Notes: generated by a model from the sequence alone, not told the origin. A DNA stretch of 64,000 bases from Rhodospirillales bacterium (GCA_007695045.1 REEP01000082.1:34510-98509); one strand, 5' to 3'; counted from the stretch's first letter, positions 4,481-41,131 are shown. Numbers and translations are program-made.

Positions 4481-5908
4481 TCATGCGCCCGGACCCTTGG
4501 ATTTTTCTTCGGTCTGGATGCCGAGGGTCTTGAGCTTGCGGTGAAGGGCCGACCGCTCCATGCCGACGAAGGCGGCCGTGCGCGAGATGTTGCCGCCGAA
4601 ACGGGTGACCTGAGCCAGCAGATACTCGCGCTCGAAAATCTCGCGCGCGTCGCGCAACGGCAAGGCCATGATCTCGGCACTGTTTTCGGGACGGCGGGCG
4701 GCCGAGAAGTGGGCTTCCAGCTCCGGCGGCAGCATGTCGGCGCGGATCGGATCGTCCGCCTCCCCCGGCGCCATGATCAGCAATCGTTCGATAATGTTGC
4801 GCAGTTCGCGCACGTTGCCGGGCCAGTCGTGCGCCTGAAGCGCGGCCATGGCGTCATCGCTCAGGCGGCGCGCCCGATGCCCCGACGCCTCCGCCGCCCG
4901 TTCCATGAAATGGGTGGCAAGCACCGGGATGTCGTCGCGCCGCTCCGTCAGCGACGGCACCTTGAGCGGCACGACACTCAGGCGATAGAACAGATCCTCG
5001 CGGAAGCGTCCGGCGCGGATTTCTTCCGTCAGGTCCCGGGTGGTCGCCGCGATCACCCGGACGTCGACGTCCACCCGGGTGGTGCCGCCGACGCGTTCGA
5101 ACACCTGCTCCTGCAGCAGACGGACGATCTTGCCCTGGGTTTCAAGCGGCATGTCGGCGACACCGTCCAGGAACAGGGTGCCTTTGTGCGCCGCCTCGAA
5201 CACGCCGATCTTGCGCGGGGAGCCGCCGCCATCGGCCGGCGCTTCCACGCCGAACAGTTCCGTCTCCATGCGATCCGGCGCCATCGACGCACAATTGACC
5301 ACGACGAACGGCCCCTGGGCACGCAGCGAGCGGGCGTGCAGAAGCCGGGCTACGACCTCCTTGCCGGAGCCTGCGGGCCCGGTGATCAGGACCCGGCTGT
5401 TGGTCGGCGCCACCCTTTCGATGGCTTGGCGCAGCTGGTTGACCGCGCTCGACTGTCCGATCAGTGTGCTGTCCGCGCCGAACCGAACCCGTAATTCCTC
5501 GTTTTCCCGGCGCAGGCGCGAGGCTTCGATGGCGCGCTGCGTCACCAGAATCAGCCGATCGGCCTTGAACGGCTTCTCGATGAAGTCGTACGCGCCGAGC
5601 TTGATGGCCTGGACCGCCGTCTCCACCGTGCCGTGGCCGCTCATGATCACGACCGGCAGCGCCGGATGCTCCTTCTTGAGTTGCGCCAACAGTCCGAGAC
5701 CGTCGAGACGGCTGCCCTGCAGCCAGATATCCAGCAGCACCAGGGTGGGTCGGCGCAACTCGATGGCGGCGACGGCCGCGTCGCTGTCATGGGCCTCGCG
5801 AGAGGCGAAGCCCTCGTCGTCCAGGATGCCGGAGACGAGATCACAGATATCCGCTTCGTCATCGACGATCAGGATGTCTTCGGCCTTAAGTCGCTTGGTG
5901 TTCGACAT
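4481..5908 (-). CDS. ntrX: Sigma-54-type response regulator NtrX
   Basis: Receiver domain (ILIVDDEADICDLV...LLDIWL), AAA+ domain (ITGPAGSGKEVVAR, GAFTGA-like region) and a C-terminal HTH. It sits after ntrY. Confidence 0.9.
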   Translation of the reverse strand: MSNTKRLKAEDILIVDDEADICDLVSGILDDEGFASREAHDSDAAVAAIELRRPTLVLLDIWLQGSRLDGLGLLAQLKKEHPALPVVIMSGHGTVETAVQAIKLGAYDFIEKPFKADRLILVTQRAIEASRLRRENEELRVRFGADSTLIGQSSAVNQLRQAIERVAPTNSRVLITGPAGSGKEVVARLLHARSLRAQGPFVVVNCASMAPDRMETELFGVEAPADGGGSPRKIGVFEAAHKGTLFLDGVADMPLETQGKIVRLLQEQVFERVGGTTRVDVDVRVIAATTRDLTEEIRAGRFREDLFYRLSVVPLKVPSLTERRDDIPVLATHFMERAAEASGHRARRLSDDAMAALQAHDWPGNVRELRNIIERLLIMAPGEADDPIRADMLPPELEAHFSAARRPENSAEIMALPLRDAREIFEREYLLAQVTRFGGNISRTAAFVGMERSALHRKLKTLGIQTEEKSKGPGA

Positions 5909-5922
5909 GGCGGTTCAACAGC

Positions 5923-8292
5923 TCATGCGGATGCGATGCGTGCCGGCTTCCGGTCGGCGATGCCGGCGTGATCGGTGGCGGCTGATGCGGTCTGCCCGGA
6001 TGGTTCTGCCCCCTGGAAGATGATCCTGACCCGGGTTCCCCCTTCCGGGCGATCCTCGAAGGTGAGATCCGCGCTGTGATCTTCGGCGATTTTCTTGACG
6101 ATGGCGAGGCCAAGACCGGTTCCCTTGGCCCGGGTGGTGACATAGGGCTCCGTGATGCGGTCGCGCAATTCCATCGGCAGACCCCGGCCGTTGTCATCCA
6201 CGGAGACGGCAATCCGTTCGGGTCCGTCGCTCCCGCTGCCGGTCAACCGCTCGATGCCGACCACGACCCGCCCCGGTTCCGGCCGCCCCGGATGGGACGC
6301 CGACTTGCCCCCGTCCTCGCCGGTCCGGCCGTCAACCAGGTTGCCAGCGTCGGCGCTGCTGCCCCGTTCCTCGACCGCTTCCGCCGCGTTCTTGAGCACA
6401 TTGGTCAACGCCTGGGCGATCTGCCGGCCGTCGCAGACCACGACGACGTCATCCGACGGCATTACCGCATCGAAGCGGATGTGCGGATTGCGGCTGCGTT
6501 CAAGAAACACCGCCTGGCGCACCAGTTCGCTGAGATTCTCGGGCTTCAGGTCGGGACGCGGCATCCGGGCAAACGATGAAAACTCGTCGACCATGCGGCG
6601 AATATCCTCGACCCGGCGGATGATCGTTCCGGTGCAGGCCTTGAACGTGTCCGCATCGGTGACGATGTCGCGCTGATACTTCCGCTGCAGGCGCTCCGCC
6701 GCCAGTTGGATTGGCGTCAACGGATTCTTGATCTCGTGGGCGATCCGGCGGGCGACGTCGGCCCACGCCGCCTTACGCTGGGCGGAAACCAGTGCGGTGA
6801 TATCGTCCAGTGTGACCACGTAACCGAACACCTCGCCATCCACCCGTTCGGCCACCACCCGGGCGATCAGGGTGCGCGGTCCGTCCTCCCGCATCGGCCG
6901 GATTTCCGCCTCGTGGGTGCGGTCCGGCTGACTGATCGCCAGGTCCAGCAGTTCACGCATCTCCGGTGCGACGTCCTTCAACGGCCGCCCGATCTCCGCC
7001 GACAGATCGGTATGCAGCAGCACCGATGCCGACCGGTTGGGCAGATTGATCAGACCGTCACGGTCCAGCCCGACAACCCCCGCAGAGACGCCGCTCAACA
7101 CCGTTTCGGTGAAGCGCCGGCGATCATCCAGCTGGCGATTGGCGACCACGAGGCTCTGGCGCTGGCTTTCCAACTGACCGGTCATGCGGTTGAACGCGCG
7201 CCCCAGGGTATCCAGTTCCTCCACCGAATTGGTCGTGTCGACACGCACGCCAAGGTCGCCCTTGCGGATGCGGTCGGCGGCGGCGATGAGGTGGCTCACC
7301 GGCTTGGAAATCTGGGTTGCCAGGGCGAGCCCGGTCCAGGCAGCCGCCATCAGCAGAAGCAACGCCACGACCACGAAAATCATCACGAAGGTGATCAGGA
7401 TCCCCTCGCGCTGCTGTTCCAGGTGCTGGTACTGGCTCACGGCATCGCTGGTGCGCTCGATGTTGCCCAGCACCTCGGGGTCGATGAAGCGGCCCACCAC
7501 AAGGTACGCATCGATGAATCGGTTGAGACGGACCACCGCCCGGACGCGGCTGGCGGTCTCGTCGCTGATCACCGCGACCTGTCCCTGGGCGGCGCGTTCG
7601 ATGGTGTTGCGCGGCACCAGATCCAGTTCCAGGCTGAGGCTGAGCGGCGTTCGCGCCAGCACCCGGGCATTGCTGTCCACCACCAGCGCTTCCGGCAGCG
7701 AGCGCAGATCCGCCTGCTCGGACAGGGCCATGCTGAACAGGTCGGGGTTGGCCATCAGCACGGGGGCATCGCGATTGAGGTCGTTGGCCAGCGCCAGCGC
7801 TTCGGCGACAATGCTTTTCTGGTGTTCCTCCAGGTAGGCTTCCGCGACCGCATTGGAGGCGATCACCGCGGTCCGCACCCGTTCGCTGAACCACGCCTGC
7901 AAACCGAAATTGAGGAAGAGCGCCGAAAACACCGCCACCAGGATCGCCGGTGTGACCGCCACCAAGCTGAACATCAGCACGAGGCGCACATGCAGTCCGG
8001 CACCCGCCAGCCCGCGGCGACGCTCGGCCCAGGCCTTGACCACCTGGAACGCAACCAAAGCCCCCAGCATCAGCAGAAGGCTCAGGTCCAGCAGCAGAAG
8101 CGCCACCAGAACGCCACGCCGTTCGCCGGGATCGATGGTGCCGGTCCACACGGCCACCGTCGCGGTGCCGGAGGCCACGGCGGCGACGGCCAGGAACTGC
8201 GCCGTCTTGCGGTAGAAACCGACCCGCCGAGACCATGCCAGCAGATGGTTCCAACGCCGCCGCGATTCGGGAAAGGCTGCGGAGACCGTCAC
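5923..8292 (-). CDS. ntrY: Sensor histidine kinase NtrY
   Basis: N-terminal TM helices, HAMP, PAS, an H-box ([17 protein letters not shown]) and a HATPase_c domain (G-boxes [12 protein letters not shown]). The GTG start overlaps the ntrC stop. Confidence 0.9.
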
Positions 8293-30987: not shown

Positions 30988-32181
30988 TCAGCTCTGGGTG
31001 AGCTTGAGTTCGATCCGCCGGTTGCGGCGAAGCGCATCCGCGCTGTCCCCTTCGGTCAGCGGAACGAATTCGGCGAAGCCGGCGGCCGCCAGTCGGTGCG
31101 GCGGTATGCCTTGATCGATCATCAGACGGACGACGGAGATCGCCCGAGCGGTGGACAACTCCCAATTGGACGCATACCGGCCGGAGACGATCGGCACCTT
31201 GTCGGTATGGCCGTTGACCTGGAGCACCCAATCGAGGTCGTCGGGGATGTCTGTCGACAGATCCCGCAACGTTGCGGCCACCCGTTCCAGCTGGGCGCGC
31301 CCTTCCGGCCCGATCACCGCGGAGCCGGTATCGAACAGGATCTCCGACTGGAAGACGAACCGGTCGCCGACGATGCGAACGTCCGGGTGTTCGCCGAGCA
31401 CGGCCCTTAGCTTGCCGAAGAATTCCGACCGGTAGCGGGCCAGTTCCTGCACCCGGGTGGCGAGGGCCGCATTGAGGCGCTCGCCGAGATTGGCGATCTG
31501 CACGTTCTGGGCCAGCACCTCCGCTTCCGCGGCTTCCAGGGCGGCGTTCAGTTGGGTAATCTGATCGCGCAACGCCGCCATCTGGCGATTCAGCAGCGCC
31601 ACTTGGGCACGCGCGCTTTCGGACAGTTCGCGCTCGGCAATCAGGGCCTCGGCGGCGGAGTCAGCGCGGCGGCCCAGGTCCCGGATCTCCTGCTCCAGGT
31701 CGGCCTTGAGCGCCTGCAAGGCGGCAATATCGGCGGAGAGAGCGATCAGGCGCCGGTTCTGCGCTTCCAGTTGAGCCTGATCCGTTTCCCGACCCGCCAG
31801 CGCCGCCGTCAGCGCGCCTTCCAATCGGGCCACGTCGCTTTCCGCGCGCGCCGCCCGCTCGGAAGCGGCGCGCAAGGCGCTGCCGAGGTCGTCACGCGCA
31901 CTCAGCGAGGCCCGCAGGTCGGCCGAGATCTGAGCGAGGTTGGCACGCAGGCCGGCGCTGGCCTGGCGCTCCAGGCTGAGCAGTTCGGCCAGTTCATCCA
32001 CCTGATTGCGCAGATCCAGAAGAGCGCGATCGCGGCCTGAGAGCGATTCGGTGAGAAACACCTGGGCCAGAACAAACACCATCAGAAGGAAAATCACCAC
32101 CATCAACAATGCCGCCAGGGCATCAACAAAACCCGGCCAGATGTTGGTGGTGCGAGGCCGCCGTCGCGCGATCGCGGTCAT
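30988..32181 (-). CDS. MotB-like stator subunit with long coiled coil and C-terminal OmpA-like peptidoglycan-binding domain
   Basis: N-terminus IWPGFVDALAALLMVVIFLLMVF is a MotB/ExbD/TolR-type single TM helix with the conserved Asp. Next comes about 190 aa of heptad-rich Ala/Leu/Glu/Arg sequence. The OmpA_C-like end is ...VNGHTDKVPI...NWELSTARAISVVRLM...RRNRRIELKL. Confidence 0.8.
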   Translation of the reverse strand: MTAIARRRPRTTNIWPGFVDALAALLMVVIFLLMVFVLAQVFLTESLSGRDRALLDLRNQVDELAELLSLERQASAGLRANLAQISADLRASLSARDDLGSALRAASERAARAESDVARLEGALTAALAGRETDQAQLEAQNRRLIALSADIAALQALKADLEQEIRDLGRRADSAAEALIAERELSESARAQVALLNRQMAALRDQITQLNAALEAAEAEVLAQNVQIANLGERLNAALATRVQELARYRSEFFGKLRAVLGEHPDVRIVGDRFVFQSEILFDTGSAVIGPEGRAQLERVAATLRDLSTDIPDDLDWVLQVNGHTDKVPIVSGRYASNWELSTARAISVVRLMIDQGIPPHRLAAAGFAEFVPLTEGDSADALRRNRRIELKLTQS

Positions 32182-32194
32182 CGATCCAAACCCT

Positions 32195-33397
32195 TCAACG
32201 CTCCGGCTGTTCGGCCAAGGCCGCGATGGTCCGGGCCAGCAACTTGATGTCGCTGCGCACCTGCTGAATGATCTCGTCGCGGCCGGAGGCCAATTCTTCC
32301 AGCAGTCGGGCGACGTATACGTCCAGGTTGCGGATGTGCGCCTTGGTCGCCTCATCCATGCCCGCGGCGGGAGTCTGGCCGGCGGCATCGGCCAAGCGCG
32401 CCAGAACCGGCTTGAGTTCCGTCTGCTGTTCCGCCAAGCGCAGCATCAGGCTTTGTTCGGTCCGCATCTGATCGGTCAAGGTGCCGATATGCTCGGCCAG
32501 CGACATCAGGTGGTGGCCGGTGGCCGCTCGGCTTTCCTCGCCGCGGGCGATGACCCGTTGCAGGTTGTCCAGGCTCTCGGCCGTCTGCTCCAGCAGTGCC
32601 TGGACATAAGCCGGCACCGACCCGTCGCCTTCGTGCGCGAGGGTACCGCTGGACAGGCGGGTCACGCCGGACAGCCAGTCCTCCAGATCGTTGTAGAAGC
32701 GGTTCTGAGCCTGATTGGCCTGCAGATCGAGAAAGCCCAGCACGAGCGACCCGCCGAGCCCGAACAGCGATGAAGAAAAGGCCGTTCCCATGCCGGCCAA
32801 CGGGGCCTGCAAACCTTCCTTGAGGTCGGCAAACACCACGGCCAGGTCACGCCCTTCCAGACTCAGCCCGCCGATCACATCGGCCACGGCGCTGACCGTG
32901 CCGAGCAGGCCCCAGAACGTGCCAAGCAGACCGAGAAAGATCAGCAGGCCGATGGTGTAGCGCGACAGGTCACGGGATTCATCCAGGCGCGCGGCGATGC
33001 CGTCGAGCAACGAGCGCATGGCCAGGGCGGACAGACTGAGCCGGTCCTGGCGCTCCCGCAGCATGGTCGCCATCGGTGCCAGCAGACGGGGCGGCGCGCC
33101 TTCCGACGGCGCCGTGGCCGGCGCACGCCCCTGGCCGCCGGCCGGCGATGCAGCCGCGTGATCGACTTGGCGGCGAAACCGCTCAAGCCACGCCGTCTCG
33201 TGGCGCAGCATGATGACCTGGCGAAAATTGTAGATCACACCGAGAAGGAGAATGCCGATAATCAGCCCGTTCAAAGGGGCGTTGGCCAGAAACGCCTCCC
33301 GCAGCGGCACGAACAGGGCCGCCCCGGCGACCGCCACCGCCCCGACGAACACAGCCATTCTCACCAGAAATCGGCGCAGTCGGGTCATGGCGGGCAC
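32195..33397 (-). CDS. MotA/TolQ/ExbB proton-channel family protein with C-terminal coiled-coil tail
   Basis: Two N-terminal TM helices and a roughly 90-aa loop. The signature TM pair is LLIFLGLLGTFWGLLGTV ... GMGTAFSSSLFGLGGSLVLGFL. A roughly 170-aa helical tail follows. 13-bp gap to the MotB-like gene. Start is GTG 33397 or ATG 33388. Confidence 0.8.
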   Translation of the reverse strand: MPAMTRLRRFLVRMAVFVGAVAVAGAALFVPLREAFLANAPLNGLIIGILLLGVIYNFRQVIMLRHETAWLERFRRQVDHAAASPAGGQGRAPATAPSEGAPPRLLAPMATMLRERQDRLSLSALAMRSLLDGIAARLDESRDLSRYTIGLLIFLGLLGTFWGLLGTVSAVADVIGGLSLEGRDLAVVFADLKEGLQAPLAGMGTAFSSSLFGLGGSLVLGFLDLQANQAQNRFYNDLEDWLSGVTRLSSGTLAHEGDGSVPAYVQALLEQTAESLDNLQRVIARGEESRAATGHHLMSLAEHIGTLTDQMRTEQSLMLRLAEQQTELKPVLARLADAAGQTPAAGMDEATKAHIRNLDVYVARLLEELASGRDEIIQQVRSDIKLLARTIAALAEQPER

Positions 33398-33470
33398 GAC
33401 TCCCAGGGATAACGGGACGTTGATTCGCGGCGGCGCGTCAGGACAGGCGGTTGAGTCGACCGCTCACCGC

Positions 33471-34214
33471 TTAGCGCCGCGCCACCGACAAGTCCACACG
33501 GTTGAACGGCTCGTCTTCAACTTGGTCACCCAAAGCGCGAACATCCATGCGCGTTCCGGCAATGCCCCGATCGATCAGATGGCCGCGCACGGCGAGGGCA
33601 CGGGCGAGCGACAGCCGACGCGCCGTGCTGGGCGTCAGGTCCTCCCCGGCGGCGTAAGCCACCACTTGCACGCGCAAGGTTTCATCAGCTTCGAGCCGAC
33701 GGGCGATGCGATCCAGCGCCAGCGCCGAACCTTCCGCCAGGTCCGCCGATCCCGCTCCGAAGGCGATGCGGAGATGCGGTGCCGCCGGCGATACCGGACG
33801 ATCCGGCCGAGCCGCCAGCGCCGTCTCTTCCGAGATATCAGGGATCGGAAGAAGATCGGGCGAACCGGCCGGATCCACCGGCAAGGTCGGCCGTGCCGTT
33901 CCGTTCACAGCCGCCTCCGGCTGCCTCTCTTGCTCAGGCGGAGACTGCTCAGGCGGAGGCGGCACACCGGCCGGCGGCGATGGCTTCGGCAACAGCCGGG
34001 CCGTGGCCGCCATTGATTGGTGCACAGGTTCCCGGTCCGGTGCCGCCGGCGGTTCGGCCCCGACCGACCGATCAATCCCGGCCGGCGGCGGCTTTTCCGT
34101 GGGCGACAGCACCTCGAGCGCCGCGCCGGCATCACGACAGAGACCACAGACCGCCACAAGGGCGATGGCGCAAACAAGGAGCGCCCGGTGCAGGCGGCGT
34201 ACTGGGATCATCAC
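33471..34214 (-). CDS. Secreted proline-rich protein with degenerate OmpA-like C-terminal domain
   Basis: Signal peptide (LLVCAIALVAVCGLCRDAGAA), a Pro-rich linker and the C-terminal LRIAFGAGSADL...RVQVVAYAAGED...ARRLSLARALAVRGHLIDRGI...NRVDL (OmpA_C topology but lacking the GHTD consensus). Confidence 0.7.
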   Translation of the reverse strand: MMIPVRRLHRALLVCAIALVAVCGLCRDAGAALEVLSPTEKPPPAGIDRSVGAEPPAAPDREPVHQSMAATARLLPKPSPPAGVPPPPEQSPPEQERQPEAAVNGTARPTLPVDPAGSPDLLPIPDISEETALAARPDRPVSPAAPHLRIAFGAGSADLAEGSALALDRIARRLEADETLRVQVVAYAAGEDLTPSTARRLSLARALAVRGHLIDRGIAGTRMDVRALGDQVEDEPFNRVDLSVARR

Positions 34215-34362: not shown

Positions 34363-35553
34363 TCAGGTGCGCAATAGATCGGCCCGGTCCGGCCGTTCCC
34401 AGGGCAGATCAAGATCGCGGCGGCCGACCTGGCCATAGGCGGCAAGACGGCGATAGAAGCCGTCGCGGGCCGCACCCGGCAGCCGGCGCAATCCGAGGTC
34501 ACGGATGATAGCGGCGAGCCGGAAGTCGAAGACGCGGCCGAGCCTGGCAGCGATGTCCGCATCGGGGATGCGGCCGGTGCCGAATGTTTGGACCTGCAGG
34601 CTCACCGGCCGCGACAAGCCGATCGAATAGCTCAACTGGACCTCGCATTCGGTGGCAAGGCCCGCGCTGACGACGTTGACGGCAGCGTAACGCGCGGCGT
34701 AGGTGCCGCTGCGGGCGATCCGGGTCGGGTCCTTGCCGCTCAAGGCGGAATCGCTCTGCCGGGCATACTCCCCGTAGGTATCGATGCCGTTCTTGCGCCC
34801 CGTGAGCCCGGCGTGGGTGGCGGGCCCGCCCACCATCAGCGGACCGCCCGGATTGATGAACAGTCGGGTCCGGTCGTCCGGGCGCACCGCCTCGTCGGCA
34901 AACGCCGGCTCGACCACGAGATCCATGAGATCCTGGTGCAGGCGATTTTGATCCGGCATCGGCCCCTCGCTGAGCGCCGCCACCAGGGTGATGCCGTGGA
35001 TGCGCGCAGGCCGGTCGTCGCGGTACTCCACCGCCACCTGGGTCTTGCCGTCGGGGGCGAGATAGGCGAGTTGACCCTGCTTGCGGACGTCGGCAAGACG
35101 GTGCGCGATCCTGTGGGCCAGCCAAATCGGCAACGGCATCAGCCCCGGTGTCTGCGTGCAGGCGAAGCCGAACACGGTCGACTGATTCTGGACGAGCATG
35201 CCATCGATTTCCGCCTCGTCCATCTCCGCCTCGTCGCGGGTCGATCGGCCCTCGGACGAAAGCGCATTCAGGCTGGTCATCACGGTGCAGGTGTTGGGAT
35301 CGAACCCGGCGTGGTCGTAGCCGGCCTCGACGATGATCCGGCGCGCCAGTCCGGCGATATCCACCACCGCATCGGACGCGAAGCGGGCGGCGATGAACAG
35401 GATACCGGTCGCGATCGCACACTCCGCCGTGATCACGGAGAAGGGGTCCTGTTGCAGGAACCGGTCGACCAAGCCGTCGCTGATCTGGTCGCACAGCTTG
35501 TCGGGGTGCCCTTCGGTGACCGATTCGGAGGTGAAGATGAAATCCCCCTTCAT
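34363..35553 (-). CDS. S-adenosylmethionine synthetase family protein, divergent paralog
   Basis: MKGDFIFTSESVTEGHPDKLCDQISD, GLTGRKNGIDTYGEY, LSGKDPTRIARSGTYAARYAAVNVVSAGLA. The canonical GAGDQG loop reads VQNQST and GGGAFSGKD reads SDSALSGKD. The start ATG overlaps the stop of the upstream ATPase (ATGA). Confidence 0.85.
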   Translation of the reverse strand: MKGDFIFTSESVTEGHPDKLCDQISDGLVDRFLQQDPFSVITAECAIATGILFIAARFASDAVVDIAGLARRIIVEAGYDHAGFDPNTCTVMTSLNALSSEGRSTRDEAEMDEAEIDGMLVQNQSTVFGFACTQTPGLMPLPIWLAHRIAHRLADVRKQGQLAYLAPDGKTQVAVEYRDDRPARIHGITLVAALSEGPMPDQNRLHQDLMDLVVEPAFADEAVRPDDRTRLFINPGGPLMVGGPATHAGLTGRKNGIDTYGEYARQSDSALSGKDPTRIARSGTYAARYAAVNVVSAGLATECEVQLSYSIGLSRPVSLQVQTFGTGRIPDADIAARLGRVFDFRLAAIIRDLGLRRLPGAARDGFYRRLAAYGQVGRRDLDLPWERPDRADLLRT

Positions 35554-38500
35554 GGCTGTGCTGCCCTTTCGTCGTGGGGTGGCGGTGCCGGCTTGAGCGC
35601 CTCGTTGATCACGAACGGGAGCACGGCGGCGGCACCGATGACCGCCGCATCCGTCATGCCAAGGGCTTGCAGGCCCAGGAGCCGGCGCAACCGCGGCACC
35701 GCCAGGGTCGCCCCCTGCACCGCCAGCGAGCCGCCGAGCGCTGCCGTCATCGCAGGGTTGCGGGGCAGACGTCCGGCCCGGAACAGGCCGTGGCGGTCCG
35801 ACCGGCAGGTGATGGCATGCAGAAGCTGGGCCGTGATCAGACTGAGGAAGGTCACGGCACCGGCCCGCGCGTCGGGACCGTAGCGCACATGTCCGTATGC
35901 GGCCGCACCAAGCGCCGCGGCGCTGATCACCGCGCCTTCCCGTGCGGCACGCTTCAGGTCCCCCGCCCGCAGGATCGCTTCACCGGGATCCCGCGGCTTC
36001 TCCGCCATGACGTCCCCGTCGGGAGGTTCCATGGCCAGCGCCAGTGCCGGGAACACGTCGGTCAGCAGATTGATCCACAGCAGCTGCATCGGTGTCAAAG
36101 TCTGGCGCAAACCAAGCGCCGTCGTCCCCAGCATCACCAGGATCTCGCTCAGGTTGGTGGCGAGGAGGAAGCGCAGCGCATTGCGCACATTGTGGTAGAG
36201 GGTGCGGCCGTGGCTGATGGCGACGATGATGGTTTCCGGATTGTCGTCCTTCAGAACCACGTCGGCCACCTCCCGGGCGACGTCGGTGCCGCTCTGTCCC
36301 ATGGCCAGGCCGATGTTGGCCGCCTTCAGGGCCGGGCTGTCGTTGACCCCGTCGCCGGTCATCGCCACCACCTTGCCGCCCTGTTGCAGCGCCTGCACGA
36401 TCTGAAGCTTGTGGCCCGGACTGACTCGGGCGAACACATGCGCCCGCTTGGCGAGCGAGGCGAGCACTTCCGGCTCCAGCTTCTCCATGTGGGTGGAGTC
36501 CAGAATCTCGATCTGCTGACCGCGACCGAGGCGGAGCTGGCGCGCAACCGCATAGGCGGTGGCACTCTGATCCCCGGTGATCATCACCGTCCCGATACCG
36601 GCCTTGTGGAAGCTGTCCATCAGGTCGGCCATGCCGGGGCGCACCGGATCGGCCATGCCGACCAGGCCAAGCCAGGTCAACTCAGGCTCGCCGTCTTCGC
36701 GGTCCGCCGCGTTCTCGGCGAAGGCGAAGCCCAACACCCTCAGGGCCTCGCCGCCCATGCGCTCGTTGGCCGCCTCGATCCGTTGGCGGTCGGCATCGGT
36801 CATCGCCTCGCGGTCGCCACCGATCAACTGCCAGCGGCACATCTCCAGAACCGCACTCGGATTGCCTTTCACGCAGAACAAGGGGCCATCGCCGTTCACT
36901 TCGTGGGTGGTCCCCATGAACTGCCGGCTTTCGGTCCGATGGTTCGTCGTGCTGCCGGGGGCCGAGCGGCGGAGCGCCGCGACGTCGATGCCGAATTCCA
37001 TCGCCATGCGGACCAACGCCGTTTCCGTGCCCGAGCCCTGCAGTTCGATGGCACCCTGATCGTCCTTGATCTCTGCCTCGTTGCACAGCGCCGCCACCGA
37101 CCCGAGTTTCTGCAGTTCCGCGCTGTCCGCAGGGTCCACGCGTTCTCCGGCCTCGGTCAGGGTGCCGTCCGACAACCGGTACCGCCGGCCACCGCAGACG
37201 ATGCTGACGACCGACATGCGGTTGAGGGTGAGCGTGCCGGTCTTGTCGAAGCAAACCACCTGCACCGCGCCCAGGGTCTCCACCGCGTCGAGCCGGCGGA
37301 CCAGAACGTTGTGCCGGCGCATCTTGCCGATGCCGATGGCCAGAGTGGTGGTGGCGATGGTGGGCAGCCCCTCGGGCACGGCGGCCACGGCCAGAGACGC
37401 GGCCGATTTCAGCATCGGCAGAACGCCCTGCCCCCGCGCCAGCCCGAGCACGAAAACCACCGCGCAGATGCCGGTGCTGATCCAGGCGAGCTGGCCGCCC
37501 ATCCGGTCCAGTTGCACCTGCATCGGCGTCTCGGGCGTGGCGGCGGTACCGATCATCGCCTGAATCCGGCCGATCTCGGTCTCCTTGCCCGTGGCCACCA
37601 CCAGGGCGCGCCCGCTGCCACCGGTGGGCACGGTACCCCGAAACACCATGTTCGTGCGGTCGCCAAGGGGAACGACGTCACCCTCAGGGCGCGCCACGGT
37701 CTTGGTCACGGACATGCTTTCGCCGGTGAGGCTGGACTCATCCACCGTGAGGTCATCGGCGGCGATGACGCGGGCATCGGCAGCGATGAAGCTGCCCGCT
37801 TCCAGCACCTGCAGATCGCCGGGCACCACGTCTTCCATCGGCACGCCCTGGGCTTGACCGTCCCGCAGCACGGTGACGACCGTGGGCGCCGTTTCGCCGA
37901 GTGCGGCTATCGTCTCTTCCGATTTGACCTCGGTCACGTAACCGATGGCGGCGTTGATGGCGACCACACCCATGATCACCACCGCGTCCACCACCCCGCC
38001 GGTGGCCGCCGACAGCACCGCCGAGGCCGCCAGCATGGCCACCGGCAGGCTCGCCACCTGTTCCCAGAGCATGGCCAGGGTGGAGCGATGGCTCGCCTTG
38101 TCCAGGGCATTGGGTCCGAACCGTGCCAGCCGTCGGTCCGCCTCGGCGCTGCTCAGACCCCGCGAGGCGCAGCACTCAAGCCGTCGCGCAACCTCGTCGA
38201 CGTCGAACCGATGCCAGGGGAGCGGCGGTTCGCCGGCGGTCGCCGGCTCGTTCGCCGCACCGCGCCGCCGCGAGGGCCGTGCCGCTGGCCGTGCATCACC
38301 CTGTTGGGGTGACGGATTCGATCGCGGCCCCGCAGCATCGGTCGCGTGGTTGGGCGTTCCTTCTTCCACGGCGTCGGCGACCGCCCGGATCACGGCGTCC
38401 ACAGGCAAGCCGGGATCGAACGATACCAGGACGCTGCCGCTCCAGCGCGATGCCTCGACGTCGCGCACGCCGCCCAGGCGCCGGATCCGCGCGGGCAGCG

Positions 38501-38690
38501 CCTCTTGCAAAGCGGGATCCCCGCGCAACGACGGCACCCGTAGCCGCACCCGACCGGCGACGACGGCATGCAGCGGGATCACCGCGCCGCTCGACGGCGG
38601 GCGATTCGCGGCATCGCGCCGGTCTCCGGCTGCCTCGCCGGCGGAACCCGCAGGTTCGGGCCCTTGACGCAGAGCATCCATGAGGTTCAT
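35550..38690 (-). CDS. P2-type cation-transporting ATPase (Ca2+/Mg2+-ATPase-like) with N-terminal HMA-like domain
   Basis: CFDKTGTLT (phosphorylation site), VPEGLP (TM4), MITGDQSATA, VAMTGDGVNDSPALKAANIGLAMG, LLWINLLTDVFPALALAMEPPD (TM6). About 110 N-terminal residues have ferredoxin-like beta-alpha-beta pattern without a CxxC. Confidence 0.9.
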   Translation of the reverse strand: MNLMDALRQGPEPAGSAGEAAGDRRDAANRPPSSGAVIPLHAVVAGRVRLRVPSLRGDPALQEALPARIRRLGGVRDVEASRWSGSVLVSFDPGLPVDAVIRAVADAVEEGTPNHATDAAGPRSNPSPQQGDARPAARPSRRRGAANEPATAGEPPLPWHRFDVDEVARRLECCASRGLSSAEADRRLARFGPNALDKASHRSTLAMLWEQVASLPVAMLAASAVLSAATGGVVDAVVIMGVVAINAAIGYVTEVKSEETIAALGETAPTVVTVLRDGQAQGVPMEDVVPGDLQVLEAGSFIAADARVIAADDLTVDESSLTGESMSVTKTVARPEGDVVPLGDRTNMVFRGTVPTGGSGRALVVATGKETEIGRIQAMIGTAATPETPMQVQLDRMGGQLAWISTGICAVVFVLGLARGQGVLPMLKSAASLAVAAVPEGLPTIATTTLAIGIGKMRRHNVLVRRLDAVETLGAVQVVCFDKTGTLTLNRMSVVSIVCGGRRYRLSDGTLTEAGERVDPADSAELQKLGSVAALCNEAEIKDDQGAIELQGSGTETALVRMAMEFGIDVAALRRSAPGSTTNHRTESRQFMGTTHEVNGDGPLFCVKGNPSAVLEMCRWQLIGGDREAMTDADRQRIEAANERMGGEALRVLGFAFAENAADREDGEPELTWLGLVGMADPVRPGMADLMDSFHKAGIGTVMITGDQSATAYAVARQLRLGRGQQIEILDSTHMEKLEPEVLASLAKRAHVFARVSPGHKLQIVQALQQGGKVVAMTGDGVNDSPALKAANIGLAMGQSGTDVAREVADVVLKDDNPETIIVAISHGRTLYHNVRNALRFLLATNLSEILVMLGTTALGLRQTLTPMQLLWINLLTDVFPALALAMEPPDGDVMAEKPRDPGEAILRAGDLKRAAREGAVISAAALGAAAYGHVRYGPDARAGAVTFLSLITAQLLHAITCRSDRHGLFRAGRLPRNPAMTAALGGSLAVQGATLAVPRLRRLLGLQALGMTDAAVIGAAAVLPFVINEALKPAPPPHDERAAQP

Positions 38691-38776: not shown

Positions 38777-39154
38777 ATGGATCAGGATAAGAACGGACCC
38801 GGCGGTTGGCAACCGCGCTGCCAGGCACCGGTCCTCTGTGACGTGCAGGAGGATGCCGTGGACGACGACGACAACACCACCCAACCCGAGGTCGGTACCG
38901 ACGCACCAAAGCCGCCGCGGCGGCGTAAGGCGCCGGCGCGCAAACGCAAGGCGACCGAGGCACGGAGCCCCACGGCGGCCGCGGCAACCGCCGAGTCCGA
39001 TGCGGAACCGGCTCCCGGCTTCGTGCCTGCCGAGACCGCCACAATGCCGTCGAGGCCACAACCGCCGCTGGCCCGCCGGATCGGCCGGATGTTCGGGGTG
39101 ACCTTGGCGCTCGGCAGCGTCGCCGTCCTCGCCGGCTGGATGCTGCGGCGGTAG
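38777..39154 (+). CDS. Hypothetical small basic protein with C-terminal TM helix
   Basis: 125-aa ORF with high GC3, an acidic then Lys/Arg-rich stretch (KPPRRRKAPARKRKATE) and a C-terminal hydrophobic helix (MFGVTLALGSVAVLAGWML). I recognise no family. The start is uncertain. Confidence 0.35.
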   Translation: MDQDKNGPGGWQPRCQAPVLCDVQEDAVDDDDNTTQPEVGTDAPKPPRRRKAPARKRKATEARSPTAAAATAESDAEPAPGFVPAETATMPSRPQPPLARRIGRMFGVTLALGSVAVLAGWMLRR

Positions 39155-40333: not shown

Positions 40334-40444
40334 CTTCCCGGGCGGCGTCACTGTCCGAGCCGAAGTCGCCAGCGCTTGGCTTGGGCCTCACACCGTGATA
40401 ATCGGCGGTGGCGATGTGCTGCTGCCCTTCCTATCCTCTCGTTC

Positions 40445-41131
40445 ATGCCTGACCTGCCCATCCCTGCCCCGGCTTTGCCGGCGCTGTCGCCCGCCGCCCG
40501 CCGTCGAGCTTTCCTCAGCATGTGGCTGGTGGATCACGGCTTCATCCGGGACGTCTACTGCAACGTCCACCGGCTGACCGACCACGCCTGGCGGTCGGCC
40601 CAGCCGTCGCCGCGCCATCTGCGTTGGGCCAGGCGGAGCGGCATCCGCACCATCCTCAACCTGCGCGGCCGGCGCGAAACCTGCGGCAGCTACCTTCTGG
40701 AGCGCGAGGCCTGCCAGCAGCTCGGCCTCACCATGGTGGACTTTCCCGTGCGCTCCCGCCAGCCGCTGGACCGGGAAACGCTGCTGGCCGCGGCTGAACT
40801 GTTCCCGACGCTGCGCCATCCGGTGCTGATGCACTGCAAGTCCGGCGCGGACCGGGCCGGCCTGATGGCGACGCTGTACCTGCACCTGCACGAAGGGGTG
40901 CCGATGCGGCTCGCCATGCGGCAGCTGTCCCTCCGCTACGGCCATATCAAGCATGCCAAGACCGGTGTGATCGATTTCTTCTTCGAAAGTTATCTTGCCG
41001 ATCAGCGTGAACGCGGCCTGTCCTTCCTCGACTGGGTGGCGGACGTCTATGACCCTGTCGACGTGCTCACGCGTTTTCGCGACAACTGGCTCGCCTCCTT
41101 CCTGGTCAATCGCGTCCTGCGACGGGAATAG
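40445..41131 (+). CDS. Cys-based protein phosphatase family protein (HCx5R P-loop)
   Basis: VLMHCKSGADRAGLMATLY is the CX5R PTP/DSP active-site loop; upstream is ILNLRGRRE. The start is ATG 40445 or TTG 40376. Confidence 0.7.
   Translation: MPDLPIPAPALPALSPAARRRAFLSMWLVDHGFIRDVYCNVHRLTDHAWRSAQPSPRHLRWARRSGIRTILNLRGRRETCGSYLLEREACQQLGLTMVDFPVRSRQPLDRETLLAAAELFPTLRHPVLMHCKSGADRAGLMATLYLHLHEGVPMRLAMRQLSLRYGHIKHAKTGVIDFFFESYLADQRERGLSFLDWVADVYDPVDVLTRFRDNWLASFLVNRVLRRE

Follow-up and report, generated by a model that had tools for sequence, protein, structure and literature searches.

A MetK-like protein encoded behind a CoBaHMA-headed P2-type cation pump in a Rhodospirillales bacterium and across bacterial phyla

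The gene pair and its two products

The window analyzed here, a 64,000-nt stretch from a Rhodospirillales bacterium (GCA_007695045.1, REEP01000082.1:34510-98509), carries on its minus strand a cation pump gene followed by a divergent relative of metK, the gene for S-adenosylmethionine (SAM) synthetase. The first gene (35550..38690, ATG start) encodes a 1046-aa P2-type (SERCA/LMCA1/SPCA-like) cation ATPase with an N-terminal CoBaHMA head, and the second (34363..35553, ATG start) encodes a 396-aa protein of the methionine adenosyltransferase (MAT) fold, which we call MetK-like and which is the third MetK-family gene of its genome. The two genes share an ATGA stop/start overlap (35550..35553, minus strand), read directly from the sequence: the minus-strand junction is CAGCC-ATGA-AGGGG, with the pump's TGA (35552-35550) lying over the MetK-like ATG (35553-35551) and an AGGG about 10 nt 5' of that ATG. 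An earlier reading of this DNA (hereafter the original prediction) had described the same reading frames, lengths and overlap, all of which we recovered at identical positions. Because of the stop/start overlap, we infer that pump and MetK-like protein are co-translated, and hence made in fixed proportion.

The pump possesses the full P2 domain set (Pfam Cation_ATPase_N, E1-E2, HAD, Cation_ATPase and Cation_ATPase_C) and carries VPEGLP in transmembrane helix 4 (TM4) as well as LLWINLLTD, which bears out the SERCA/PMCA-like hallmarks that had been proposed for it. Among solved structures, Listeria LMCA1 (6zhf) comes closest at 473 bits, ahead of SPCA1 and SERCA, and with these pumps it shares the domain order, the catalytic motifs, PEGLP in TM4, N..E in TM5 and N..[TS]D in TM6. 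Specifically, TGES, DKTGT and TGDGxND are invariant in 68 pump orthologues, as are E440 (TM4, in PEGLP), N846 and E849 (TM5), N874, [TS]877 and D878 (TM6) and Q955 (TM8), with H958 (TM8) found in 67 of the 68. At the positions of the Ca2+ sites the window's pump thus has E440, N846, E849, N874, T877 and D878, but Q955 in place of a Glu in TM8, aligned with an Arg of LMCA1. We take Q955 and H958 to occupy the positions of SERCA E908 and N911. By these motifs, site II of the pump looks calcium-like and site I looks altered. Along with the TM8 residues, the extra N-terminal head sets the protein apart from LMCA1, SPCA1 and SERCA.

This head (38346..38582, minus strand; approximately residues 37-115) had been predicted to be an HMA-like domain without Cys, and it proves to be a member of a named family. 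Pfam HMA_2 (PF19991) matches pump residues 37-92 above its cut-off of 30 bits, scoring 31.9 bits, and 34.4 bits when the whole genome is scanned; no CxxC is present, and no Cys occurs before residue 173. The signature H41-x4-G46-R47-x-R49-x-[KR]51 shows no or almost no variation among the orthologues. In an AlphaFold2 (AF2) model the head folds as β0(6-9)-β1-α1-β2-β3-α2, i.e., with an extra β0 strand, at a mean predicted local distance difference test (pLDDT) score of 86, and Foldseek returns weak matches to CopZ, MerP, HMA7 and YajR-YAM domains (E 0.002-0.07, TM-score up to 0.77). Pfam HMA_2 corresponds to CoBaHMA (bioRxiv 10.1101/2024.07.07.602159), a domain defined by an HMA-like ferredoxin fold with an additional N-terminal β0, a conserved His, basic residues in β1/β2 and no CxxC (PMC8890360). 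The Cys-less fold, extra β0, conserved His and basic β1 residues of the pump's N-terminal domain are those of this family, and the domain is a CoBaHMA domain. The same genome encodes a second CoBaHMA-headed P-type ATPase on contig C72 (L090:2575-5302, minus strand; 707 aa; N-terminus MQIVHEICGRMRLR), which is of the P1B class (TIGR01525, 484 bits) and is directly followed by a 165-aa CoBaHMA protein (MHHVPGRIRFRV); these two may be a ferrosome-like pair.

The MetK-like protein is matched by all three MetK Pfam domains (PF00438, PF02772 and PF02773; N, M and C) and passes the TIGR01034 metK equivalog cut-off, though low (360.2 against 309.4 bits). It is not the housekeeping MetK, as had been suspected from its motifs. 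Specifically, the source assembly (3.35 Mb, 138 contigs, 97.6% complete) holds three MetK-family genes with scores of 595 (contig C72), 508 (contig C127; L002:1495-2637, plus strand) and 360 bits (the window copy), of which the first two keep GAGDQG, GD[CA]GLTGRK and HGGGAFSGKDP[ST]KVDRS. Canonical MetK is likewise present in 27/27 other genomes with a MetK-like gene (483-630 bits, vs. 318-416 bits for the MetK-like proteins). Two canonical metK genes in one genome are unusual in themselves, and Rfam finds no SAM riboswitch at either.

The MetK-like protein retains GHPDK (residues 15-19), DTYG (258-261) and SGKDP (272-276), in agreement with the original prediction, which had also proposed that two other canonical motifs are rewritten. 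Both are: HGGGAFSGKD reads QSDSALSGKD, and the GAGDQG loop reads LVQNQS in a MAFFT alignment, one position off the VQNQST register given previously. Across the MetK-like family the loop reads [PT]V[KR]NQ[AV].

A residue census separates what is kept from what is replaced. It draws on an alignment of the window protein and 80 relatives, together the 81 family members counted below, with E. coli MetK and both canonical copies of the source genome; positions follow the numbering of mature E. coli MetK. H14, D16, K17, E42, Q119, R244, K245, K265 and D266 are kept in 80-81 members, D163 in 80/81 and K165 in 76/81. On the other side, E55R, D238H, F262L and the conservative K269R are found in 81/81, G258S in 80/81, D118N in 72/81 and Q98L in 68/81. 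The window protein itself retains H16, D18, E44, D168, K170, R253, K254 and K274 (its own numbering), and has R57 (=E55), L98 (=Q98), N123 (=D118), H247 (=D238), R278 (=K269) and A280 (=D271), such that its catalytic and substrate residues do not all align with those of characterized enzymes.

The roles of these positions are documented in human MATα2, where the methionine main chain is held by Glu70, Gln113 and Asp258, Phe250 stacks on adenine, and catalysis involves His29, Lys181, Lys265, Lys285, Lys289 and Asp291 (PMC6850014). In that enzyme Asp258Gly and related mutants lose SAM synthesis, while hydrolysis of tripolyphosphate (PPPi) is unaffected (PMC6850014). By offset mapping, human Glu70, Gln113 and Asp258 correspond to E. 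coli E55, Q98 and D238. Taken together, the census and the MATα2 residue roles suggest that the family has swapped exactly the methionine contacts and retained the triphosphate and metal site, with the triphosphate/Mg/K residues H14, D16, E42, K165, R244, K245 and K265 still shared with MetK/MAT enzymes, and that the acidic amine-binding pocket has turned basic or neutral. The fold as a whole is kept: the AF2 model (pLDDT 86.7, predicted TM-score 0.88) has the three-domain MAT architecture, Foldseek places it at a TM-score of 0.90 to solved MATs (5h9u, 8bb1 and 7r3b), and identity to solved MATs is 40-42%. This residue pattern makes it very improbable that the MetK-like protein works as a SAM synthetase.

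Linkage, descent and accessory partners

Relatives of the MetK-like protein at 57-86% identity were located at 80 loci of species-representative genomes, spanning Rhodospirillales, many Nostocales and other cyanobacteria, Nitrospirota, Desulfobacterota/Syntrophia, Methylomirabilota, Binatia and Gammaproteobacteria (at least five phyla). In 79/79 loci with upstream sequence, the pump or a remnant of it lies directly upstream on the same strand. The gap between the two genes is -4 in 26 of these loci, ≤30 nt in 37 and ≤150 nt in 68, and never exceeds 304 nt. As gene order and strand are conserved in 79 independent loci, chance pairing is excluded. Neither of the two outcomes that would have overturned the original prediction was obtained: metK is not a single gene here with every catalytic residue in register, and the adjacency is retained in relatives. 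The remnants come from two metagenome-assembled genomes of Xenococcaceae (L072, 4949-6126, and L075), in which an IS4/5 transposase (DUF4096 plus DDE_Tnp_1) cuts the pump so that its last 117 aa are left; the MetK-like gene is intact in both, and the 4-nt overlap is kept.

Co-occurrence within the window's own order is equally strict. Among an even set of 201 genomes of that order, the MetK-like gene is found in eight (5/90 genera). Each of these eight, and no other genome of the set, also has a CoBaHMA-headed orthologue of the pump (≥50% identity), always adjacent to the MetK-like gene; other P2 ATPases in the 201 genomes are at most 41% identical and have no head. In the genomes and loci covered, the MetK-like protein is never the sole MetK and always sits behind a P2 ATPase, which sets it apart from MetK/MAT enzymes. 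Of the two associations that had been put forward for checking, co-occurrence is confirmed and gene fusion is not, as the best 150 representatives include nothing above 833 aa in length. PLSDB plasmids hold only canonical metK (<48% identity), including the best match (Paenibacillus).

A search of 1.84 billion representatives yielded 17,432 MetK-family proteins. Phylogenetic analysis of 138 full-length sequences unites the R55/H238 proteins with their H238 relatives in a single clade (support 0.98). Nested inside this clade are divergent sub-lineages that have lost K165 and F230 but kept H14, D16, R244, K245, K265, R269 and D271. What all members of the family have in common is therefore the site for the phosphate chain rather than that for adenosine or methionine. 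The divergent members remain tied to the pump as well: in sub-lineages P0007, P0009 and P0013 the MetK-like gene lies 1-70 nt behind a homologous P2 ATPase (44-49% identity), and P0007 and P0009—the only two with downstream sequence—have convergent HMA_2 and small DUF5132-type genes downstream. Two MetK-like copies (~388-416 bits, TIGR01034) are present in Fischerella PCC 9431 (G201), Chlorogloeopsis PCC 6912 (G202) and Hydrococcus rivularis (G206), which implies two copies of the module in some cyanobacteria; for Hydrococcus this is seen directly in loci L015 and L061.

Selection on the window copy can be gauged against the 86% identical relative at locus L004. The ratio of nonsynonymous to synonymous substitution rates (dN/dS) between them is 0.117 for the MetK-like gene (dS 0.78) and 0.263 for the pump, and no more than five positions of the window protein differ from the 95% family consensus. 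Two of the five, D271A (a Mg ligand) and K283V, are common only to the window protein and L004. The MetK-like gene is therefore under strong purifying selection even without D271, and this persistence speaks for a function in which complete two-metal chemistry is dispensable; on these residues, a binding or partner role would be favored over classical catalysis.

Clustering of open reading frames (ORFs) across the 80 loci identifies recurrent partners of the pair, namely DUF5132 proteins, small HMA_2 proteins, a ~230-aa repeat protein and, in some Nitrospirota, CorA; by the same clustering, the module has no conserved methyltransferase or radical-SAM gene. DUF5132 tracks the module closely, being present in 8/8 carrier genomes and 0/15 non-carriers (23 of the 201 genomes tested). 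In the window, none of the DUF5132, HMA_2, repeat or CorA partners flanks the pair. Instead, an accessory operon lies on contig C91 (L089:5900-8105, plus strand) in the order DUF5132 (109 aa, 5900-6229), CoBaHMA-TM (~6240-6743), repeat protein (215 aa, 6846-7493) and CoBaHMA protein (128 aa, 7719-8105), all on the plus strand. A genome of the same genus (G158) likewise has its accessory genes on another contig. In L005 and L006, by contrast, the accessory operon is convergent with the pair and immediately follows the MetK-like gene. Convergent and adjacent there but split here and in G158, the accessory genes point to two adjacent convergent operons as the ancestral arrangement in the order. 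A rearrangement would then have separated the operons in this genus while pump and MetK-like gene stayed together. The residence of the accessory genes on a separate contig also suggests that the pump and MetK-like pair is an indivisible core, i.e., the core of what appears to be a conserved, patchily inherited multi-gene module.

The best described parallel for the accessory genes is in Microcystis, where DUF5132 and CoBaHMA genes flank the calcyanin gene (ccyA) and a Ca2+/H+ exchanger gene and are co-expressed (bioRxiv 10.1101/2024.07.07.602159); that study of the ccyA neighborhood is the only mention of DUF5132 in the literature searched. An association with DUF5132 genes, there alongside a Ca2+ transporter, is thus common to both systems. 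They differ in that the CoBaHMA domain here heads a P2 ATPase rather than calcyanin or DUF454, that no ccyA was seen, and that a MetK-like partner goes unmentioned in the CoBaHMA literature searched; Gaschignard et al. (2024) may list a CoBaHMA/P-type ATPase architecture. Our literature searches found no link between a MetK-family protein and a P-type ATPase, in line with the earlier statement that none had been described, and the module is apparently undescribed.

Two side observations belong with these gene sets. In seven Nitrospirota loci (L021, L023, L025, L048, L051, L053 and L060), the gene immediately behind the MetK-like one encodes a CorA-family Mg2+/Co2+ channel and either overlaps it or lies no more than 15 nt away, and an SDR gene and a DHDPS-family gene come after the accessory operon on contig C91.

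Candidate functions of the pair

We consider it somewhat better than an even bet that the pair forms the core of a conserved module in which a CoBaHMA-headed divalent-cation pump is joined to a triphosphate-binding MAT-fold partner that is not a SAM synthetase. The pump would be an active P2A-type divalent-cation transporter with its calcium-type site II intact and its site I altered, and its metal-free, basic CoBaHMA head probably regulates or localizes it. The MetK-like protein most likely binds, and perhaps hydrolyzes, a triphosphate-bearing ligand (e.g., ATP, tripolyphosphate or the end of a polyphosphate chain), and would most likely do so as a soluble partner of the pump, made in proportion to it through the overlapping stop and start. 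The pair would further work with the DUF5132, CoBaHMA-TM, repeat and CoBaHMA proteins, encoded in this genus at the second locus. Gene anatomy, residue pattern, conservation, co-occurrence and purifying selection are direct observations, whereas the transported ion, ligand binding, physical partnership and co-translation are what we infer from them.

Several observations weigh against this interpretation. On the pump side, the Ca2+-like assignment of the ion comes from motifs, Q955 and H958 at what we take to be the SERCA E908/N911 positions mean that the ion could be other than Ca2+, and the pump scores below the cut-off of every NCBIfam Ca-ATPase equivalog (PMR1-type, 600 against 798; SERCA-type, 546 against 703; PMCA-type, 395 against 507), a further difference from LMCA1, SPCA1 and SERCA. 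On the MetK-like side, the active-site loop (239-268) is of low confidence in the AF2 model, and it is conceivable that methionine, or some other substrate, fits a new pocket made by R55 and H238. D271, a Mg ligand, is kept in 79/81 family members and is Ala only in the window protein and L004, which weakens the case for catalysis by this copy. The lack of a pump-MetK fusion among the best 150 representatives also belongs here.

The invariant charge reversal at positions 55 and 238 can be read in another way, as the mark of a neofunctionalized adenosyltransferase in which the C5' of ATP is attacked and the adenosyl group passes to some other, probably anionic, acceptor, with product or substrate tied to the pumped ion. 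The acidic pocket E55/D118/D238 has become R/N/H, the adenosine-side residues are largely kept in the core clade (D163 in 80/81, K165 in 76/81, F230 as Phe or another hydrophobic residue), and purifying selection is strong, all of which speaks for such an enzyme. We nevertheless regard it as unlikely, as K165 and F230 are lost in divergent sub-lineages that are still linked to the pump, D271 is absent from the window copy, and the conserved genes of the module offer neither a candidate acceptor nor a downstream enzyme. A genuine SAM synthetase specialized for some local need, binding methionine through a reshaped pocket, is less likely again and in our judgment improbable. The protein does pass the TIGR01034 equivalog cut-off, with its fold intact and H14, D16, K165, R244, K245 and K265 in place. 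Against this, the methionine contacts are replaced family-wide, GAGDQG and GGGAF are rewritten, D271 is lost locally, canonical MetK occurs in every carrier genome tested, and neither a methyltransferase nor a radical-SAM gene is conserved nearby. The additional losses D271A and K283V in the window copy would suit a decaying duplicate, or a chance neighbor with a function unrelated to the pump, but the low dN/dS, the few departures from consensus, the adjacency in 79 loci across phyla and the strict co-occurrence effectively refute it.

A broader and rather unlikely proposal is that the module makes or fills a mineral or phosphate store inside the cell, by analogy with ferrosomes or cyanobacterial Ca-carbonate inclusions: the pump would fill the compartment, the CoBaHMA and DUF5132 proteins would shape or target its membrane, and the MetK-like protein would handle polyphosphate or PPPi. 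Ferrosome (fez) clusters consist of a P-type ATPase (FezB, P1B-6) and small membrane proteins in a patchily distributed accessory cluster, and are not known to contain a MAT-fold gene. The present module resembles them in pairing a P-type ATPase with small membrane proteins in a patchy accessory set—as organelle gene sets often are. Co-expression of DUF5132 and CoBaHMA genes beside calcyanin and a Ca2+/H+ exchanger in Microcystis, and the triphosphate site as the part of the MAT fold that is kept, are also as this proposal would have it. The pump, however, is P2 and not P1B (TIGR01525, 241 bits against a cut-off of 346), unlike FezB; moreover, no Pho box lies near the window copy, the two local loci have no motif in common, and there is no compartment marker. 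It would be a long shot that pump, MetK-like, DUF5132, CoBaHMA-TM and repeat proteins make up an unrecognized machine that loads or manages an intracellular store of divalent cations and phosphate, with the MAT fold serving as a subunit that binds or hydrolyzes tripolyphosphate or polyphosphate ends and is stoichiometrically coupled to the pump. If true, one of the most conserved enzyme folds in biology would have taken on a new biochemical function.

The findings on the pair bear on annotation and physiology. Because all MetK-like members pass the metK equivalog threshold (318-416 against 309 bits), they are probably named "methionine adenosyltransferase" in hundreds of genomes, and such naming inflates apparent SAM-synthesis capacity, given that the methionine contacts are missing. 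The strict pairing of MAT-fold protein and CoBaHMA-headed pump in Cyanobacteria, Nitrospirota, Desulfobacterota, Methylomirabilota, Binatia and Pseudomonadota points to a widely shared cation physiology, and the recently named CoBaHMA and DUF5132 families gain a concrete, testable set of partners. To this the window adds a case in which the accessory genes lie apart while pump and MetK-like gene stay side by side.

Regulatory sequences and neighboring genes

A weak sigma-70-like promoter match, TTGCCA-17-TATCCT, was found by consensus scan on the minus strand at 38784..38812, about 95 nt upstream of the pump's ATG; its TATCCT and the following AACCTGAACCGCC are conserved in L004. The Pho box CTGTCAT-N4-CTGTCAT, searched with up to three mismatches, has two matches in the window against a chance expectation of 3.2, none of them near the pair. 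Comparison of the regions upstream of the pump (five loci) with those upstream of the DUF5132 operon (four loci) gave no shared motif above shuffled controls, and Rfam matched nothing in the window, at the C91 locus or near either canonical metK gene. No convincing terminator was found in the 148-nt gap behind the MetK-like gene.

Directly downstream of the pair, and also on the minus strand (30988-34214), lies a stator-like trio comprising an OmpA-like protein (247 aa), a MotA/ExbB-like protein (400 aa, weak Pfam match) and an OmpA protein (466 aa). Its co-directional downstream position is as originally described. As a part of the module, the trio was considered and rejected: it is without homologues in the 80 loci and absent downstream of the pair in L004 and G158, and we regard it as a purely local neighbor.

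On the opposite side, divergent from the pump, a 125-aa ORF (38777-39154, plus strand) encodes a putative tail-anchored protein (C-terminal TM helix) whose N-region is acidic and which contains a KPPRRRKAPARKRK stretch; it has no Pfam match, and conservation of its C-terminus is seen in L004 and, weakly, in G158. Beyond it is a gene for a 251-aa dual-specificity/protein tyrosine phosphatase (PTP)-like protein (40376-41131, plus strand; PF22741, 39.5 bits) with a CX5R motif (HCKSGADR). Both genes are syntenic only with L004, where the phosphatase is 92% identical.

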